From a virus (lineage: Duplodnaviria > Caudoviricetes), in IMG/VR virus record IMGVR_UViG_3300046786_000925, positions 1 through 36,688 of that record: DNA of 36,688 bases; one strand, written 5' to 3'. The notes below the pieces were generated by a model that made no database searches, was not told the DNA's origin, and saw nothing but the letters and a program-made list of their open reading frames with translations. Positions within the stretch are counted from its first letter, which is position 1. Every line of letters starts with the position of its first letter. Position numbers and translations under genes: made by a program. Of the stretch, positions 365-36,358 are shown piece after piece.

Positions 365-883
365 ATGAGTAGCAAATCTAAAAACAAAGGCAATAGTTGG
401 GAAAGAGATGTAGCAAATCATCTTTCTATCTTATATAAATCAAAATTCCTACGTGTTCCTGCATCTGGTGCATTCATCGGTGGTAAAAATAGCGTTAGAA
501 AAGAATTTCTTCACGAAGGTCAAATCCGAATGATGAAAGGCGATATTATTCCACCAGATAAATGGAAATATTTTAACTGTGAATGTAAATCATATGCAGA
601 TTTTCCATTTCATCAACTGATGCAAGGTGAATGTAAACAATTGGAAACTTGGCTATCTCAATTACTTGAAGTAGCCGATGAAGGCGACATGAATATCTTA
701 ATGTTTAAGATAACAAGAAAAGGCAAATTTGTAGCAGTACCACAGGCACCACATTGGCATACTTTACCATATAACTCATACCATTCTATTAAACATGGTA
801 TTTGGCAAATATTTGATTATGATGCATTTTTTGAACATAATCAAAAACTAGTCAAAACACTATGTACCAAAGGCACACTCTAA
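365..883 (+). CDS. Hjc-like Holliday junction resolvase (PD-(D/E)XK nuclease)
   Basis: N-terminal SKNKGNSWERDV, RVPASGA, GDI and ECKSY motifs typical of the Hjc/PD-(D/E)XK resolvase family. Confidence 0.8.
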   Translation: MSSKSKNKGNSWERDVANHLSILYKSKFLRVPASGAFIGGKNSVRKEFLHEGQIRMMKGDIIPPDKWKYFNCECKSYADFPFHQLMQGECKQLETWLSQLLEVADEGDMNILMFKITRKGKFVAVPQAPHWHTLPYNSYHSIKHGIWQIFDYDAFFEHNQKLVKTLCTKGTL

Positions 884-899
884 GGCATCTCTAGGCTCC

Positions 900-1300
900 A
901 CACTTCTGAAATACTCGCACAGGTAGATTGATATGTGCCGTTGGCAATGGAATGTTCTTCGCATTGAGCGCAACAACTGAGCAGAAGCAGTGACTTTTTC
1001 GACTACCTACACCTCGTGTTGTAGATGATGATTGGATACGCCTTCCGTAAAACCAATTTCGAAAATTTGAACAAATGAAAAAAGGCTAAATGACTGGGTA
1101 ATTCCCAGACGTAATAGGAATTTGACTAGAGTATTTTCCTATTGCCACCGTTGGACATCAGAAACAAAAACGCACTTCGAGGTAACGGCCAACCGCCTCT
1201 GTAATAGTGTAACTCTAGGTAATGAAGTAACTCAAATGAGAATTTATTATTTTTTGCTCCCTTCGGGGGGCAAAATGTGTAAATCATAATCTAAATGAGT
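900..1300 (+). ncRNA. Candidate large structured ncRNA with multiple pseudoknots (unassigned family)
   Basis: ORF-free and GC-richer than its flanks. Many complementary segments, e.g. 903-908/982-987, 1094-1098/1104-1108, 1111-1120/1136-1145, and a 1252-1275 hairpin with a cUUCGg tetraloop. Loop-to-distal pairings at 1126-1132/1212-1218, 1040-1044/1082-1086 and 921-926/1003-1008. Strand inferred from the UUCG loop and G-U pairs. Confidence 0.6.
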
Positions 1301-1360
1301 ATAGCACATATACATTACTTTTGATAATAAGAGAACAGTGAAGAGCGATAGCGATGAACA

Positions 1361-1376
1361 GGGGAACATGTTCCCC
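1361..1376. repeat. Perfect 16-bp palindrome GGGGAACATGTTCCCC
   Basis: Directly visible; preceded by the tandem AGCGAT-AGCGAT (1344-1355). Confidence 0.85.
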
Positions 1377-1383
1377 TCCTATG

Positions 1384-1412: not shown

Positions 1413-2477
1413 ATGAAAGTATATGAAATTGTTAGTACAAATAAAGAATTAAATGAAGGACTCAAATCAAAAATATTTGGTGGTGCACTCGATGCAATTA
1501 TGAATGTTCTTGGTAAGGGATCTGCTAAACAACACCTTGATGATTTATCTCGGTTTGTTCGGTCAAATGGGAAGCTTGATATTGATTCAATAAGAAATAC
1601 TAGAAAGTATGGAAATTTTGTTGCTGATAAACTTGAAAGTGACCCTAAATTAGTTAAGCAAATAGAAAAGATAGCAAGTAATAAAATAAGCAATGCTACT
1701 TTTACAAAAAATGTAGCAGAACTTAAAGCAATTACATCTAAAATAAAAACTGCAGCTGGATCTTTACTTTGGGCAATTGATTCTGCAGCACTATTATATA
1801 TTGGATTTAAAGGATTATATGAACCAATTGCAACATATTATAGCAATATTGAAATTGCTGAACAGCGATACTTAGATACTGGTAAATGGACACCTGAAGA
1901 ATTTAATACATATCATAGACGTGAAGCTGGTGCATTGGTTGGTAAATTAACAGCCAATATAGTTGCTTTTACTGCATCCAGAATACCAGGCGCTAGTGTA
2001 AAAACTGTTTTAGTAAGATTATCGAAGATATTAGGTAAAGCTGGTAATATTGGTCCATTAGAAACTATTATTTCTGGTATGAATACAGCTGCTGCTGCTG
2101 CTGCAATACAATGGATTAATAACGAACATAATGCATCAATTATTGCTAATTTGTTAGCGAAACCATTGATATCTGACATATCAGCGAATGATATAGCTGG
2201 TGGTGCTATTACTACAGTAATTGATGCTTTTAAGGGTATTAGCAATCAATCAACCAGTAGTAATATCAGTGGAATTCCATCTAGTAATGCTGCAATTGGA
2301 AATAACAGTAGTACAGAACCAAATAATACTGCATCCACACCAGTTAGTACACAAACACCAGCTGCAACTGGATCGGGATCACCCGCAGCGTATAATCCTG
2401 ATGATTGGGAATATTATACGCCATCCTTGGTTAAAAATAAGAAAACTGGTGAGATTAATTTCAAGCAATCAAATTAA
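1413..2477 (+). CDS. Putative internal head / ejected virion protein
   Basis: N-terminus MKVYEIVSTNKELNE|G resembles T4 capsid-targeting leaders ending in a gp21 (I/L)-x-E site. Contains hydrophobic helices and a Ser/Thr/Pro linker. Confidence 0.45.
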   Translation: MKVYEIVSTNKELNEGLKSKIFGGALDAIMNVLGKGSAKQHLDDLSRFVRSNGKLDIDSIRNTRKYGNFVADKLESDPKLVKQIEKIASNKISNATFTKNVAELKAITSKIKTAAGSLLWAIDSAALLYIGFKGLYEPIATYYSNIEIAEQRYLDTGKWTPEEFNTYHRREAGALVGKLTANIVAFTASRIPGASVKTVLVRLSKILGKAGNIGPLETIISGMNTAAAAAAIQWINNEHNASIIANLLAKPLISDISANDIAGGAITTVIDAFKGISNQSTSSNISGIPSSNAAIGNNSSTEPNNTASTPVSTQTPAATGSGSPAAYNPDDWEYYTPSLVKNKKTGEINFKQSN

Positions 2478-2702
2478 TGGTAGTTGAGTTTTTTTAGTAT
2501 TTTCAATATTTTCTTTAATAATATTGTACATAATATCTCGATCTTCTGAGGTGTATCTATCCATTAAATCATTTACGGATACACCTCCTCTCATATACCA
2601 ACTTACCTTGAAATAATCTTCTTTAAGATGTTTAATTTCTTCATCTAGCCTAACTAGATATTCATTTATTTCTTCAGATGATAATCCAATTAGGCGTTGT
2701 CG
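2469..2702 (-). CDS. gp51-like tail/baseplate assembly chaperone extension; -1 frame continuation of the gp26-like gene (not in the ORF track)
   Basis: 77 open codons RQRLIGLSSEEINEYLVRLDEEIKHLKEDYFKVSWYMRGGVSVNDLMDRYTSEDRDIMYNIIKENIENTKKTQLPLI*. No ATG/GTG/TTG before the internal WYMRGG Met. Begins at a T TTT TTC heptamer. Confidence 0.7.
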   Translation of the reverse strand, partial: RQRLIGLSSEEINEYLVRLDEEIKHLKEDYFKVSWYMRGGVSVNDLMDRYTSEDRDIMYNIIKENIENTKKTQLPLI

Positions 2703-3514
2703 AAAAAATTTGAATAATCTAAATCTATATTAAGAAGTGCGTCTTTACCACACTCGCATTGTACTGACATTGGTGGAATACTCCATTTTTGTTTTGTATT
2801 TTCAATTTGTTTTTTTATAGCATCTGTGATTTCTTTATCACAATTCTCGATCCATTCTAAAATATAACCACGTTCAGATACTGTCATATCAGGAGTTTGA
2901 ACTGAATCAATACTGGCAACATATGAGTCTTTTTGGATCTCAGCCAATTCAATCCATAATGCATTAATTGATTCTTGTTGTTCTTCTTTTGATTCTAGGT
3001 TTTCTACTTGTGATAATTTCTGTCTTAATTCAAAATTCTTGATATTAAAATCAGTAAATTGTTTATAACTAAATGGTTTGGTTTTTATAATTAAATCTCT
3101 AATTACTATTTTATTATCATACTTACATGACATAAAATGATCTATTACGGTTGATAAATCTACGGTATATTCATTTATCTCACCACATGCTTTGCATACA
3201 TGACCAATAGTCATATCATTACCAAATGTTGCAATTTTAATCGCAGCAAAAATTAATTCACTATCCAAGGTTGAAATATCCCACCCATCTTTAATAGATG
3301 GACAACAGCTTTGAATAATTTTCACAGAACTTTCACCTGATAATAATGCATCAGGGGTTTTTGCAATAATTTCGTCCATGCCAGTCATACCATATACTGG
3401 CAATCTATCTGCTGGGCCATCAATTGTCCCAACTCTATTGTAAATTCCTTTACTAGGTAAATCGATGAAAATCTTTGGTTGTCTAAAATAATTCTGTAAT
3501 GGATTTGCTGCCAT
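2690..3514 (-). CDS. g26: T4 gp26-like baseplate hub assembly protein / tail assembly chaperone
   Basis: NPLxxYFRQPKIFIDLPSKG N-terminus, CKAC and CEC Zn-type Cys pairs, C-terminal NFF. SD AGGAG at 3521-3525 (minus strand). Confidence 0.7.
   Translation of the reverse strand: MAANPLQNYFRQPKIFIDLPSKGIYNRVGTIDGPADRLPVYGMTGMDEIIAKTPDALLSGESSVKIIQSCCPSIKDGWDISTLDSELIFAAIKIATFGNDMTIGHVCKACGEINEYTVDLSTVIDHFMSCKYDNKIVIRDLIIKTKPFSYKQFTDFNIKNFELRQKLSQVENLESKEEQQESINALWIELAEIQKDSYVASIDSVQTPDMTVSERGYILEWIENCDKEITDAIKKQIENTKQKWSIPPMSVQCECGKDALLNIDLDYSNFFDNA
2702..2708 (-). other. Putative -1 programmed ribosomal frameshift slippery site (U UUU UUC)
   Basis: X XXY YYZ heptamer in the correct phase, 3 codons before the gp26-like stop. 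The -1 frame stays open for 77 codons. Confidence 0.65.
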
Positions 3515-31600: not shown

Positions 31601-33283
31601 ACTGGAACTAGTACAGAACGTATGCGTATCGACAGTTCTGGCAACCTAGGTTTGGGGGTTACTCCGAGTGCTTGGTATAGTGGGTATAAAGCATTTGATG
31701 TTTCTGCTTGGGGTAGTGTTGTCGGCGAGTTTGGCACTCAAGGTACGATAACTGTTGTATCAAACGCATACGCAACTTCGGCTGGATACGATAGTTGGGT
31801 CTATAAAAACACTGCACCAGCCTCTCGATATAAGCAGTATGACGGTCAACACCAATGGTACACCGCCCCATCCGGCACCGCAGGTAACGCGATAAGTTTT
31901 ACTCAGGCTATGACGTTGGATGCTAGTGGGAATTTGGGTATTGGTACGAGTTCTCCTATTGCTAAATTAGATATTGCTGGTGATTTGAATGTCGATTATT
32001 TTTCTCGAAAAATTGGGTATTTAGCTGGCGACTCTAGTCACCAAGGCTATATTCAGCCTTATGACTCTAATGGGTTTTTAAATCTATATGCCACATTTGG
32101 AACTGGTGGGATAAGGCTTTTTACTGGGTCAGGTGGTGGCACAGAACGTATGCGTATCGACAGTTCCGGTAACGTGGGGATTGGTCTTTCTACCCCTGGT
32201 GCATTATTTGATGTATACCGTGAAATACGAGTTAGTTATGCCAACAGTAATCAATATCGTATTAGAATAACTGATACTGATGGGAATGGGCGTATTTTAG
32301 TTGATGGTGATACGAGTAGTTTAATTTTTGGTACATCATCTGCTGGCACAAACGCGACTGCTACAGAACGCATGCGTATCGACAGTTCTGGCAACCTTGG
32401 CTTGGGGGTTATTCCTAGTGCTTGGAATAGTACTTGGAAAGCAATTGAGATAACTTCTGGTGCTGGGTATATCGGTTCTGGTGTAGTAAATGCTATTTCA
32501 ATTGGGCAGAATAATTATGTAAATGCTGGTGGTAGTTATGTTTATAAAACTACTAATGCAACGACCGTGTATCAACAAACCGCTGGGCAACACCAATGGT
32601 ATACAGCAGCATCGGGTACTGCAGGAAACGCTATTAGTTTCACCCAAACAATGACACTGGATGCTAGTGGGAATTTAGGGATTGGTACCACCACGCCAGG
32701 TGCTAAATTAGAAGTTAATGGAACAGTTAGATTCCCATCAGTAGGAACAAGTGGTATAATTGGATTAGGGGCTAGTGGTGCATTGAGTTCAGTAACAATT
32801 GGGTCAGGATTAAGTTTAACAGCTGGGACATTGACTGCATCTGCATCGGTAAGTGTATCAGATGATACGACAACTGTTGCAACATATTATCCTGTATTTT
32901 CCACTACAACAAGTGGTGCCCCAACATTAAAAGTATCATCAACAAAATTGCAGTTTATACCAAGTACTGGTACATTATATGCTACAATATTTCAATCATT
33001 ATCTGATAAATCATTGAAAACCAATGTTGAATCCATTGTAGATCCATATGCCGTATTAGAATTAGAAGGTGTTAAATATGATTGGGTTGATGGAAGTGGT
33101 ACCCAATACGGTTTTATAGCTCAAGATGTTGAAAAAATTATTCCTGAATTAGTTGGGTTTAATGGCGAATATAAAAGCGTTAATTATAATGGTATTATAC
33201 CATTCTTAGTTGAAACTGTTAAAAAACAACAATCTGTTATTGATAGTTTAATCGCTCGTATAGAAAAATTGGAGAATAAATAA
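28601..33283 (+). CDS. Tail fibre with N-terminal beta-propeller repeats and C-terminal intramolecular chaperone (peptidase S74-like) domain
   Basis: Four Y(Q/E)YTLST(A/P)(W/F)D(V/I) repeats and several ERMRIDSSGN repeats. C-terminal SDKSLKTNV...GFIAQDVEKIIPELV...SVNYNGIIPFLV plus coiled coil. Confidence 0.85.
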   Translation: MSNILKEFNVKHGALIGTNNANYVQILGSASGNSVAINAQGTDTDISISLVPKGNGTVNIPLSSAIMPLGTPNGVLYLDSTKAITTGNNLTFSGTNLGIGITTPSTALEVNGDIKVSNTTETLTKTSTIDGWTYSGKSILVSAQETASRGLSFSTDGTKMYIVGQTTDTVYQYTLSTPFDVSTATYASKSFSILAQDGTSTSLYFKPDGLVFYMLGDSLDTVYQYTLSTAWDISTSAYSGGSFANTQETAPAGLGFSTDGTKMYIIGSNTDTVYQYTLSTAWDVQSATYSTKSFSVTLFDGTPSGIEFNNNGTKMYIVGSGYDCIIEYTLSTAWDVSTAVYTDRLLISLGISIIDPLTVLDATVTQDIYTDFTNNVAYILDSNTGRVYQYTTNTTPMKVSGNKLVVTPFTYFKNDIATLGSIRALGFIQATNAATFSSTVNVGSTLTASGSLVASSTITLSGSASSATTIGTAATTGTTTIGGTLQSGLITIGQSTGAQTLNIANGATLTATTKTVNIGANGVSGSTTNINIGSAVSGATSSTTNNGTLSVTGTLNATSTISLGGSTTSATNIGTSALTGTTTIGGTSQSGIITIGQSAVAQTLNIANGATLTATTKTVNIGANGASGSTTAINIGSAVNGATNNITVNGLTVVQSATSRVGIGIDSGGSITLGRQDGTASSPYIDFNTGATLVDYDTRIIATSGNGTAGNGTLGILTGAVGIGTSTPGAKLHIRQDQDGTTQTIIQNRNATGTPLSALTFISGAFDYADDRYAQIVSGGGSSNYLAFKVSNGATPSEKLRIASSGNILIGTSTDNSTGLLQVNGTITGTTLKSTVATGTAPFTVSSTTLVTNLNADTLDGYHASSFLTAETDTLQSVTGRGATSSVSTISLTAATASTTTGTGTLVVTGGVGIGGDTYVGGNLVVTGTITGSNPTSTIDLTPANTSGVQKGIRLYDAGTGSGEGLYIQWESASRSDAAQIYGVGDTTGGALVFKTNTSNTGTSTERMRIDSSGNLGLGVTPSAWYSGYKAFDVSAWGSVVGEFGTQGTITVVSNAYATSAGYDSWVYKNTAPASRYKQYDGQHQWYTAPSGTAGNAISFTQAMTLDASGNLGIGTSSPIAKLDIAGDLNVDYFSRKIGYLAGDSSHQGYIQPYDSNGFLNLYATFGTGGIRLFTGSGGGTERMRIDSSGNVGIGLSTPGALFDVYREIRVSYANSNQYRIRITDTDGNGRILVDGDTSSLIFGTSSAGTNATATERMRIDSSGNLGLGVIPSAWNSTWKAIEITSGAGYIGSGVVNAISIGQNNYVNAGGSYVYKTTNATTVYQQTAGQHQWYTAASGTAGNAISFTQTMTLDASGNLGIGTTTPGAKLEVNGTVRFPSVGTSGIIGLGASGALSSVTIGSGLSLTAGTLTASASVSVSDDTTTVATYYPVFSTTTSGAPTLKVSSTKLQFIPSTGTLYATIFQSLSDKSLKTNVESIVDPYAVLELEGVKYDWVDGSGTQYGFIAQDVEKIIPELVGFNGEYKSVNYNGIIPFLVETVKKQQSVIDSLIARIEKLENK
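30098..30476 (+). repeat. Exact 70-bp direct repeat (30098-30167, 30407-30476) within a 309-bp-period duplication
   Basis: Directly visible; encodes TLNIANGATLTATTKTVNIGANG. Confidence 0.9.
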
Positions 33284-34458
33284 TGTCAGGGTTTAATTCA
33301 CCTTTAACTGGTGATTTTGACAAATATTTCATGACTACTACCGATCTAATTGATCGGTATGCAACAGGCGGATTATGGACTTGTGGTTATAATAATAATG
33401 GACAATTAGGTGATAGTACAACAACCAGTAAATCAAGTCCAATACAAACCATTGCAGGTGGAACTAATTGGAAACAAGTTACATGTGGCTATATGCATAC
33501 TGCAGCAATCAAAACAGATGGAACATTATGGACTTGGGGTTATAATGCGTTTGGTCAATTAGGTAATAATGCAACAATCAGTAAATCAAGTCCAATACAA
33601 ACCATTGCAGGTGGAACTAATTGGAAACAAGTTTCCGGCGGTTCCTCTAATATAGCAGCGATTAAAACAGATGGAACATTATGGAATTGGGGATATAATG
33701 GTGATGGACGACTAGGTGATAGTACAACAATCAGTAAATCAAGTCCAATACAAACCATTGCAGGTGGTACTAATTGGAAACAAGTTGCGGGTGGCTATTA
33801 TCATACAGCAGCGATTAAAACAGATGGAACATTATGGACTTGGGGTGATAATTCTTATGGTCAATTAGGTGATAGTACAACAACCAGTAAATCAAGTCCA
33901 GTACAAACCATTGCAGGTGGCACTAACTGGAAACAGGTTTCATGCGGTCAGTATCATATAGCAGCAATAAAAACAGATGGTACATTATGGAATTGGGGTA
34001 GAAATAATAATGGTCAATTAGGTGATAGTACACCAACCAGTAAATCAAGTCCAATACAAACCATAGTAGGTGGCACTAATTGGAAACAAGTTACATGTGG
34101 AGCTTATCATACAGCAGCAATGAAAACTGATGGTACTTTATGGTCGTGGGGATATAATCTTTTTGGAGCATTAGGTAATAATACAACAATCAGTAACTTA
34201 AGACCGGTACAGACCATAGCAGGTGGCACTAATTGGAAACAAGTTACATGTGGAGCTTATCATACAGCGGCGATTAAAACAGATGGAACATTATGGTCTT
34301 GGGGTAATGGTGGTGATGGCCGACTAGGTGATAGTACTAGTATACCAAAATCTAGTCCAGTACAAACCATTGCAGGTGGTACTAACTGGAAACAAGTTGC
34401 ATGTGGCTATCGACATACTGTAGCAGTACAATATTCAGATATAGGACAAATTTTATAA
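33283..34458 (+). CDS. RCC1/BLIP-II-like 7-bladed beta-propeller protein
   Basis: Seven 51-aa (153-bp) repeats LWxWGxNxxGQLGDSTTxSKSSPxQTIAGGTNWKQVxCGxxHTAAIKTDGT. Confidence 0.9.
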   Translation: MSGFNSPLTGDFDKYFMTTTDLIDRYATGGLWTCGYNNNGQLGDSTTTSKSSPIQTIAGGTNWKQVTCGYMHTAAIKTDGTLWTWGYNAFGQLGNNATISKSSPIQTIAGGTNWKQVSGGSSNIAAIKTDGTLWNWGYNGDGRLGDSTTISKSSPIQTIAGGTNWKQVAGGYYHTAAIKTDGTLWTWGDNSYGQLGDSTTTSKSSPVQTIAGGTNWKQVSCGQYHIAAIKTDGTLWNWGRNNNGQLGDSTPTSKSSPIQTIVGGTNWKQVTCGAYHTAAMKTDGTLWSWGYNLFGALGNNTTISNLRPVQTIAGGTNWKQVTCGAYHTAAIKTDGTLWSWGNGGDGRLGDSTSIPKSSPVQTIAGGTNWKQVACGYRHTVAVQYSDIGQIL

Positions 34459-35147
34459 TGTATTTACTAATAGAAAAAACACACGATGGAATGGATTTCG
34501 TTCATCTAGGACCAATGAATTGGAGACCTAGATTTTTTCAATCCTGTTTAAGAGATGATTTAGAAATAGAATTCAATGTTCCGTTATCAAATGATACTAA
34601 TGAAGCAATTATTATTAACGAAATTGCTAGAATTATTCCAGTTATTGATATTGGATTAACATCAGAATATAATCCAAAAATTCAACGATTAGTTGGACCA
34701 AAGTATAATTTCTTTGAAACATATGCAGAACTGTATCATGATGTAGAAGATAAACCAATTGAAGTAGTTAGAGAAGAATTAAAACCGATTGTTGCAGCTA
34801 ATAGATATCGTTATGAAATATTAGGAATTACTGTTAATATTCAAGATAAAGATATCTCGATATTAACTACACGGGAAGATCGTGGATTATATTTACAAGC
34901 ATATCAACTAGGTAAAGATGGTATTAATTGGAAATTCGGTAATGAATTCTTAACATTATCTAATGATGATTTAGGAATTATAGTGCAAGATATTGCCAAT
35001 CATGTACAAAATGCATTCGATTGGGAAGCTAATAAAATACAAGAAATAGATAATACCACATCATTATCGGAATTAAATGAATTAAAATTGGTTTCTGATA
35101 ATATTTTATGGGAACCGGTTATAATTGAACGCCCAGGAATAATGTAA
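34458..35147 (+). CDS. Putative tail-fibre assembly/adaptor protein (DUF4376-like C-terminus); start revised to ATG 34458
   Basis: TAATG overlap with the upstream stop. RYRYEILGI...INWKF...HVQNAFDWE pattern resembles DUF4376-type fibre-associated proteins (recalled, not searched). Confidence 0.6.
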   Translation: MYLLIEKTHDGMDFVHLGPMNWRPRFFQSCLRDDLEIEFNVPLSNDTNEAIIINEIARIIPVIDIGLTSEYNPKIQRLVGPKYNFFETYAELYHDVEDKPIEVVREELKPIVAANRYRYEILGITVNIQDKDISILTTREDRGLYLQAYQLGKDGINWKFGNEFLTLSNDDLGIIVQDIANHVQNAFDWEANKIQEIDNTTSLSELNELKLVSDNILWEPVIIERPGIM

Positions 35148-36358
35148 TGTCTAGTAATTTTAACGAGAGTGATGGGTCAGATATAACTTCTAAATTTGTC
35201 ACTAAAGATTATTTAATTGATGTTTATCCTTATCTAAATGGATTAGGTAATAATATTAAAATGGCTGGTTTGTGGAATTGGGGATATAATAGTGGTGACT
35301 TAGGTGATAGTACTAATGTAAGTAAATCAAGTCCAGTACAGACCATTGCCGGTGGAACTAATTGGAAACAAGTATCAAAGGGAAGACAACATATCGCTGC
35401 AATAAAAACCGATGGTACGTTATGGTTATGTGGGCTCGGTTCTAATGGTAGTTTAGGTGATAGTACATCCGTTACTAAATCCAGTCCAGTACAGACCATT
35501 GCTGGTGGAACTAATTGGAAACAAGTTTCGGGTGGAACTAGTTTCACTGCTGCAATCAAAACCGATGGTACGTTATGGCTATGGGGGACAAATGCAAATG
35601 GACAATTAGGTGATAGTACAACAACCAGTAAATCAAGTCCAATACAAACCATAACAGGTGGTACTAATTGGAAACAAGTTGCATGTGGGTCTATATATAG
35701 TGCAGCAATAAAAACCGATGGTACTTTATGGGCTTGGGGAAGTAATTTTTACGGCAATTTGGGAAATAGTGATAGATCTACTAAATCAAGTCCAGTACAG
35801 ACAATTGCCGGTGGTACTGATTGGAAACAAGTTGCATGTGGGTATAGACACTCTGCAGCGATAAAAACCGATGGTACATTATGGTTATCTGGGGGTAATA
35901 GTTTTGGTCAATTAGGTGATAGTACAATAGTTAATAAATCGAGTCCGGTACAGACAATTGCAGGTGGTACTAATTGGAAACAAGTTGCGTGTGGATACTA
36001 TCATACCTCAGCGATAAAAACCGATGGTACATTATGGTCATTTGGAGGTACAACTATGTTTGGGCAAATTGGATGTTTAGGTGATAGTACAACAGATCCT
36101 AAATCAAGTCCAGTGCAAACCATTGCAGGTGGTACTAATTGGAAACAAGTAGCATGTGGCGATCTTTTCAGTGTAGCAATAAAAACCGATGGTACTTTAT
36201 GGAGTTGGGGGAGGGGCGACAGCGGACAATTAGGTGATAATAATACAGTGAGTAAATCCAGTCCGGTTCAAACCATTGCTGGTGGTACTAATTGGAAACA
36301 AGCAGCTTGTGGTTCAAGTAGTTCAACAGCGATACAAGAAATGGGGGATGATTTTTGA
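35147..36358 (+). CDS. Second RCC1/BLIP-II-like 7-bladed beta-propeller protein
   Basis: Seven repeats with the same scaffold as 33283-34458; TAATG-coupled start. Confidence 0.9.
   Translation: MSSNFNESDGSDITSKFVTKDYLIDVYPYLNGLGNNIKMAGLWNWGYNSGDLGDSTNVSKSSPVQTIAGGTNWKQVSKGRQHIAAIKTDGTLWLCGLGSNGSLGDSTSVTKSSPVQTIAGGTNWKQVSGGTSFTAAIKTDGTLWLWGTNANGQLGDSTTTSKSSPIQTITGGTNWKQVACGSIYSAAIKTDGTLWAWGSNFYGNLGNSDRSTKSSPVQTIAGGTDWKQVACGYRHSAAIKTDGTLWLSGGNSFGQLGDSTIVNKSSPVQTIAGGTNWKQVACGYYHTSAIKTDGTLWSFGGTTMFGQIGCLGDSTTDPKSSPVQTIAGGTNWKQVACGDLFSVAIKTDGTLWSWGRGDSGQLGDNNTVSKSSPVQTIAGGTNWKQAACGSSSSTAIQEMGDDF

Follow-up and report, generated by a model that had tools for sequence, protein, structure and literature searches.

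An Rfam orphan motif extended about threefold in a T4-like jumbo phage, a candidate primer-forming RNA of a ColE1-like replication origin

GOLLD, ROOL and OLE are large, ornate, pseudoknotted phage-associated RNAs whose function is open. Polynucleobacter-1 (RF01718) is presented in the accessible text of Weinberg 2010 (PMC2864571) as a probable RNA of Burkholderiales and of fresh water and estuaries, with an open function, and is scored there as possibly cis-regulatory; outside subscription papers and bioRxiv supplements, our literature search found no published account of its full-length form or function. The ColE1 plasmid, according to the available sections of PMC5043065 and PMC3167613, uses a Rep-free primer and a primosome site downstream of it, and the portion at hand of a review (PMC4412123) describes the pairing of an rG stretch in the RNA with a dC stretch in the template as essential for the ColE1 R-loop. 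The same portion describes oriF and oriG of phage T4 as R-loop origins composed of a promoter and an unwinding element. Finally, the ARRPOF motif of the Fusobacterium plasmid pKH9 lies, in the accessible part of PMC5737381, within a gene-free region that supports replication without a rep gene. Here we describe a phage locus for which comparison with its relatives establishes a fold, a twin word, a downstream DNA motif and an occurrence in bacterial islands, and whose RNA we believe, with moderate confidence and by analogy, to be the cis-acting primer-forming RNA of a ColE1-like replication origin with a changeable hook.

The window (the whole 36.7-kb stretch of DNA that was analysed) is a fragment of a T4-like jumbo phage, as judged from its gene content (resolvase, baseplate hub, portal, prohead protease, major capsid, tail). 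Its closest cultured relatives, traced through the resolvase, are PA5oct-like Pseudomonas phages (~51% identity). A first-pass annotation of the sequence had picked out a long stretch free of ORFs and GC-richer than its flanks, and had suggested that it encodes an undescribed RNA of a possibly new class. The stretch itself is real, since no other gap between main genes is as long as 884-1412 (529 nt; the next is 212 nt), and its G+C content is 39.9% as against 33% in both neighbouring genes. Elsewhere in the window (2478-2720, minus strand), a TTTTTTC run lies shortly before the end of the baseplate-hub gene (3514-2690), and the 212-nt gap 3' of that gene is spanned by a second frame that has no stop for at least 80 codons, which fits a -1 frameshift. 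At 33283-36358, a DUF4376 gene lies between two RCC1-repeat proteins at the end of the tail-fibre cluster.

The claim of novelty did not survive a search with the Rfam covariance models. Positions 912-1068 match Polynucleobacter-1 at 61 bits (cut-off 37, E 9e-11) over model positions 1-141 of 141, and a hit of this kind had been named beforehand by the annotation as its own refutation. RF01718 is the sole family to reach its cut-off in 850-1430, and nothing does so in 1069-1430. The reported lack of RNase P, tmRNA and group I/II intron signatures holds for the Rfam models in 850-1430, and the window contains no tRNA or tmRNA; covariance models of HDV-like and other Rfam ribozymes and of introns likewise gave no similarity in 850-1430, and those of GOLLD, ROOL, OLE and ARRPOF gave no match at E up to 10. 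Compared with GOLLD, ROOL and OLE, as far as the available part of 10.1101/2024.12.08.627333 describes them, the element is tied to its own downstream DNA and has no Rfam match to them.

What did hold is a large, conserved, multi-pseudoknotted structure on the phage + strand, with RNA-type signatures (Table 1; the ends of the RNA gene are set by conservation). Loci were collected via the resolvase (80) and via two short patterns (153), and iterated profiles matched 185 of 237 sequences, yielding 104 non-redundant full-length homologues of ~390 nt with a mean identity of 59%. Among 120 loci chosen by a pattern in the Rfam domain, 111 extend to model position 350 or further of 395, 7 end early (at least 3 of them where the stored DNA stops) and 2 matched the pattern by chance. 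Since the 111 run far past the Rfam domain, the Rfam motif is a fragment, the 5' third only, and the element is an RF01718 member extended about threefold and not a new class; relative to the model as given in the accessible text of PMC2864571, the 3' core, the pseudoknots, the twin word and the DNA tail all lie outside. Downstream of the resolvase a homologue is detectable in 31 of the 80 loci, the remaining 49 having none within 3 kb, and several of the 31 have the 3' core in common but a different 5' domain.

Table 1. Features of the locus, in window coordinates.
Feature	Position	Strand	Evidence or remark
RusA-like/PD-(D/E)xK Holliday-junction resolvase	365..883	+	phrog_244 E 4e-19, PF24608; upstream gene
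Full-length structured RNA gene, ~400 nt	900..1300	+	395-position profile matches 905-1299; covariation
5' domain Polynucleobacter-1	912..1068	+	stem 917-921/934-938, small pseudoknot 913-915/922-924, closing stem 996-1000/1062-1065
Two hairpins and loop pseudoknot 1126-1132/1212-1218	1094..1145	+	z 16.6, 19.1 and 18.3
Most conserved core	1148..1218	+	stems 1172-76/1206-10 and 1179-82/1196-99; near-invariant GUA and ACCG
Word 1 AAATGAG, proposed RNA hook	1234..1240	+	after conserved ACTC; identity covariation with 1293-1299
Terminal hairpin, cUUCGg loop	1252..1275	+	between the two words; z 13.0; 93% of cells paired
Word 2 AAATGAG	1293..1299	+	after conserved ATCT; template-strand complement is the proposed landing site
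A+T-rich spacer, proposed unwinding/R-loop stretch	1300..1342	.	sequence; homologue A+T profile
GAGCGATAGCGA then perfect palindrome (1360-1377)	1343..1377	+	proposed single-strand initiation (primosome) signal acting as DNA
354-aa downstream gene	1413..2477	+	context; no Pfam or PHROG family at E 0.01

The fold first proposed for this RNA was largely, although not entirely, upheld. All 11 of the listed complementary pairs are present at the coordinates given for them; the description of the stretch as nearly saturated with helices has to be tempered, as the single sequence folds with only a modest advantage over its shuffled versions (z -2.2; 2 of 100 did as well). Across homologues, 9 of the 11 main helices are supported. 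An alignment-free comparison of own with shuffled partners (65 homologues of less than 85% identity; two control pairings at z 1.7 and 1.8) supports 903-908/982-987, 945-949/962-966, 1094-98/1104-08 and 1111-20/1136-45, with z from 4.5 to 19 among the supported helices, and column covariation supports 1031-35/1053-58 and 1172-76/1206-10. Three of the four pseudoknots stand, namely 1126-32/1212-18 (paired in 91% of cells), 1151-54/1189-92 and 1040-44/1082-86, the last being the weakest supported pairing (z 4.5). The fourth, 921-926/1003-1008, fails the same comparison (z 1.3), the actual partners being 934 for 921, 913-915 for 922-924 and 1022-1024 for 1007-1009. The outermost 3' helix, 1230-34/1296-1300, fails as well (z 0.4), a direct repeat occupying those positions, and the inner CGG at 1186-88, assigned to 1193-95, co-varies better with 1148-50. 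The loop of the core, which pairs through 1189-92 with 1151-54, thus probably pairs with 1148-50 too.

Against a purpose-built, tree-aware null (20 simulations), 16 column pairs co-vary at E <=0.05, of which 13 are base pairs and 3 are identities; covariation among homologues, whose absence would have told against the RNA, is therefore present. In the 5' domain the co-varying pairs are 919-936, 920-935, 921-934, 913-924, 996-1065, 1000-1062 and 1033-1056. An alignment of 52 sequences of the 3' core has 91% of its cells paired (slid controls 36-49%) and two-sided changes in 17 of 24 pairs. No U-tract follows the terminal hairpin, and terminator prediction does not call it. Just 5' of the RNA (865-900) there are three AGGC copies, present in close homologues too, that could rival 1082-86 for pairing with the GCCTT loop.

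The repeat that occupies the positions of the failed 3' helix is a twin 7-nt word (1234-1240 = 1293-1299) that the first-pass annotation had missed. Anchors on both sides were found in 187 of 499 loci, 148 of them non-redundant, and in 138 of these 148 the two words match at all 7 positions (mean of shuffles 23, maximum 37), with identity falling to 18% at the eighth position. The word itself is free to vary, as 20 different words occur among the identical pairs. In aligned homologues the words agree in 85 of 99 (shuffled mean 11), and 55 of 65 word changes fall on the same tree branch and to the same letter, compared with 13% for random column pairs. A third, complementary copy of the word nearby was seen in 2 of 75 homologues (5.4 expected), and within 300 nt there is no further copy or complement beyond chance. 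The simplest partner that would demand identity of the words is the template strand opposite the second copy. A wobble-asymmetry test for a partner copy acting as RNA met 6 mismatches, all at word edges, and since these are too few, such a copy cannot be told from them.

Past the second word, the DNA takes on a different character, which had also escaped the first annotation. The A+T content of 75 homologues is 76% at +20 to +40 nt, the other bins ranging from 59 to 71%. The GAGCG-N-AGCGA motif at 1343 is the sole occurrence in the window, and GAGCG-N(1-3)-AGCGA is found on the RNA-sense strand in 49 of the 75 homologues and on the antisense strand in 5, a median of 50 nt past word 2, with a background of 0.0002 per 200 nt as estimated from seven phage contigs. 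Hairpins with a C-GNA-G triloop are stable in DNA. With stems of at least 5, they occur on the + strand in 23 and on the - strand in 28 of the 75 tails (background ~0.001 per 200 nt), a several hundred-fold enrichment on both strands; the window itself has the motif at 1343 and the palindrome but no GNA-triloop hairpin downstream. By these patterns, the tail patch is strand-biased and DNA-like. Taken with the twin word and with the bacterial islands described below, it points to replication initiation.

We take the GAGCG-N-AGCGA motif to be part of ColE1 ssiA. In the ColE1 record, G6 runs lie at 928 and 1175 and GAGCGTAGCGA at 1332, and as in ColE1, the motif of the phage element lies downstream on the same strand. 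Like ColE1 RNA II, as described in the available sections of PMC5043065, PMC4412123 and PMC3167613, the element is a long folded RNA, ColE1 working without an initiator protein, and in both cases an upstream stretch of the RNA equals a downstream DNA site, here the twin word, for which we infer pairing with the template. Unlike ColE1, the hook is a 7-mer of mixed and variable sequence whose twin lies ~50 nt away, rather than G6 at a distance of 247 nt, the element is heavily pseudoknotted, and no antisense RNA was identified here. The core model has no match in the ColE1 record, and there is no sequence homology to RNA II. On balance, then, the element probably works like RNA II, without a sequence relationship to it. 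The nearest published precedent is ARRPOF (accessible part of PMC5737381), likewise an ornate motif in a gene-free region, from which the element differs in its hosts and in having no match to the ARRPOF model. Like T4 oriF and oriG, the element belongs to a T4-like phage and its transcript would be followed by an A+T-rich unwinding stretch; unlike them, it has a conserved folded RNA and a twin word, neither of which is described for T4 in the portion of PMC4412123 at hand.

The following sequence of events can be envisaged. RNA polymerase would transcribe the element, and the pseudoknotted body would fold as it emerges. The fold and the terminal hairpin would then present word 1 to the template opposite word 2, right behind the polymerase; if word 1 pairs in this way, the two words must be identical. 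So anchored, the transcript would remain paired along the A+T-rich spacer, forming an R-loop, and could provide the 3' end from which the leading strand is synthesised. GAGCG-N-AGCGA and its hairpin would become accessible on the displaced + strand, where they might serve as a loading site for helicase and primase. A promoter scan stayed at chance level, and neither a promoter nor an antisense regulator was identified.

It is unlikely, in our view, that the words are instead duplex-DNA or RNA sites for a dimeric protein, the RNA being separately structural or regulatory (e.g. a scaffold or a late-gene regulator). The fairly constant spacing of the words (median 52 nt) would suit such a protein, as would the gene that lies directly 3' in many loci and the cis-regulatory score given to the motif in Weinberg 2010 (accessible text of PMC2864571). 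However, each of the ~55 coupled single-letter changes would need a matching change in the protein, the next gene is convergent in many loci, and a search of five partial and two complete phage genomes did not turn up DUF6641, the neighbour of the RNA in bacterial islands.

These islands are a second context that the first-pass annotation did not see. Of the pattern matches in bacterial genomes, 12 of 22 are the same RNA at >40 bits, mostly in Polynucleobacter records, and the freshwater/estuary and Burkholderiales distribution expected for RF01718 is what we find. All eight annotated islands share one layout, in which a divergent DUF6641 gene is followed by the RNA, the hairpins and a 188-aa tyrosine recombinase, the last three pointing away from DUF6641; a 407-424-aa integrase is also present in 6 of the 8. 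No published literature on DUF6641 was found. Among the 140 of 175 island ORFs that were scanned, none belongs to a Rep, primase or reverse-transcriptase family. An AAA ATPase is encoded in 7 of the 8 islands, several times with a ~260-aa neighbour, and these could be the islands' own replication proteins.

The same position was examined in 28 betaproteobacterial DUF6641 loci, 24 from 301 Burkholderiales genomes (24 of 25 usable, one lacking upstream DNA) and 4 from another set, several of the loci sharing a genome. It is taken by a twin-word RNA in 12, by an HUH-Rep-like ORF in 7, by one ORF family in 3 and by something else in 6, and the RNA and the HUH-Rep-like ORF never occur together (0/28). 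The 12 RNAs comprise 4 of the Polynucleobacter-1 type, 4 of a diverged type and 4, classed by eye, of a third twin-word element. This third structured element (L317, L318, L339, L300, upstream of DUF6641) has twin words and a GAGCG-N-AGCGA tail, follows a 100-146-aa ORF that belongs to no known family, and is not matched by the homologue profiles. The HUH-like ORF has HxH and YxxK motifs that are invariant in 6 of 6 aligned sequences, a match to PF23343 below the cut-off (E 3e-4) and atlas neighbours of which 16% of members carry PF23343. The top three fold matches of its model (pLDDT 83) are HUH Reps (Z 8.5, 7.9 and 7.7, against 6.9 for unrelated folds; rmsd 3.1-3.5, 107-125 aligned); Foldseek with this model returned nothing at E 0.001, and when the Rep-like alignment was searched against the sequences of solved structures, the matches were all spurious. 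The alternative gene is a probable replication initiator, tentatively of the HUH type. A 152-177-aa family in the RNA/HUH position (L321:608-1138, L330:2264-2719, L295:5755-6210) is a candidate for a further type of initiator.

An RNA that shares one island position with an HUH-type gene, the two never occurring together, might itself be catalytic, that is, word 1 might guide it to nick its own DNA at word 2, or it might cleave itself, creating the primer end and replacing the HUH nickase. The core is near-invariant and doubly pseudoknotted, an elaboration beyond what a mere hook would seem to require, and DNA hairpins lie on both strands beside word 2. Against this, the element has no similarity to Rfam ribozymes or introns, the RNA-library contigs map neither a cut site nor an RNA end, and the strand-biased ColE1-like motif fits strand displacement without catalysis, so that we rank a catalytic initiator just behind the protein-site explanation, as unlikely in its turn. 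The widest generalisation of the primer-forming reading, a widespread family of RNA-only initiators in uncultured jumbo phages and integrative islands, each with a re-programmable 7-nt guide to its own DNA, with at least three RNA folds and an HUH Rep interchangeable at one position and, at its boldest, a core that is a DNA-cutting or primer-end-making enzyme, is speculative and, in our view, unlikely.

Still less likely is that the RNA guides or partners the adjacent nuclease, in the manner of OMEGA or HEARO RNAs, for homing or recombination-dependent replication. It is true that in 73 of 79 scorable phage loci the RNA comes right after a nuclease gene, but the type of this gene varies (SegE/GIY-YIG-like in 63, resolvase in 10, other or none in 6; the labels are motif-based, PF19835 having been confirmed for one example), the islands have no co-oriented upstream nuclease, and the variable word matches its own locus. 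Unlike OMEGA and HEARO RNAs, then, the element has no fixed pairing with one co-encoded nuclease family, and the upstream resolvase of the window is context and not an obligate partner.

That the whole element is folded single-stranded DNA (a large single-strand origin) we consider very improbable, even though the tail is DNA-like and, according to the accessible part of PMC5737381, ssDNA motifs are not easily told from RNA motifs. Supported helices of the body have 269 G-U against 65 A-C combinations, an excess that favours an RNA on the + strand. Moreover, GNRA-closed stems outnumber GNA-closed ones by 43 to 12 in the body, and the ratio is reversed in the tail (8 to 41). In DRT2-type systems a reverse transcriptase jumps templates, and a short region of a large structured RNA flanked by direct repeats recalls such a signal here too, but with no reverse-transcriptase family among the 140 island ORFs or the window's 21 proteins the idea is barely credible.

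The primer-forming reading, if true, would assign a role to an Rfam motif that has been an orphan, reveal where replication starts in a large group of uncultured jumbo phages, and mean that the hooking of transcript to template known from ColE1 also comes with a far more elaborate fold and a code word that can change. With its ~480 bp and its presence in cultivable Polynucleobacter, the module is directly testable, and re-matched pairs of words could yield orthogonal, protein-free origins.

DNA searches found no homologue in annotated phages and plasmids, nor any plasmid match to a typical homologue, and with the core model included, cultured phages yielded none. In the phages, the element lies near a divergent switch in gene orientation in four long contigs and in the genomes G309, G312 and G311, at distances of 7, 4.6 and 5.4 kb in the latter three, of which G311 carries the L055-type element described below; in G309 (complete, 347 kb) this is the sole large divergent switch. 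Raw strand skew tracks gene direction, and G/C and T/A skew at synonymous sites does not flip at the locus (4 partial and 3 near-complete or complete genomes). Because this is a single inherited arrangement and the skew does not flip, the switch lends weak support to an origin. When whole genomes were scanned for clusters of hairpin motifs, the locus came top in G312 but not in G309 or G311. As to transcription, RNA-library contigs of relatives span 902-1300 in one freshwater sample (X3 = X4), and those from a second sample cover part of this stretch; the runs with element contigs cover capsid genes too, the shares are small, and the contigs carry no strand, ends or level.

Other non-coding DNA is found beside the resolvase. 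Thirteen loci, among them PA5oct, Phosso and gaps of the L040/L055 type, gave no significant match to the core covariance model and are therefore not counted as members. Gene-poor, hairpin-rich stretches adjoin the resolvase in PA5oct (L081:2480-3995, 1.5 kb) and Phosso (L083:2980-4005, 1.0 kb), the latter next to an RNase HI gene; none of the four PA5oct ncRNAs listed in PMC7318152 adjoins the PA5oct resolvase. In related jumbo phages, a separate large conserved non-coding element lies 3' of the resolvase in L040, L047, L049, L055, L066, L067, L076 and L077, and also in L581-L700. The L055 type combines a terminal hairpin with shorter repeats and a DNA tail that looks similar, and ~370 stored viral stretches match its pattern. 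Its hairpin-plus-repeat layout made it a candidate member, but it was rejected when a GGCA-anchored twin test gave 15 of 62 (shuffled 10, maximum 17). A G+C-richer gap of ~155 nt, possibly a small structured element, recurs 3' of the resolvase stop in L012, L013, L014, L035, L037, L039 and L043. Lastly, one phage contig carries a second full-length Polynucleobacter-1-type RNA (L727:5700-6300; G312:C1 at ~165.9 kb), 110 kb from the usual site and near RNA ligase and redoxin genes, with a twin word and a hairpin tail of its own.
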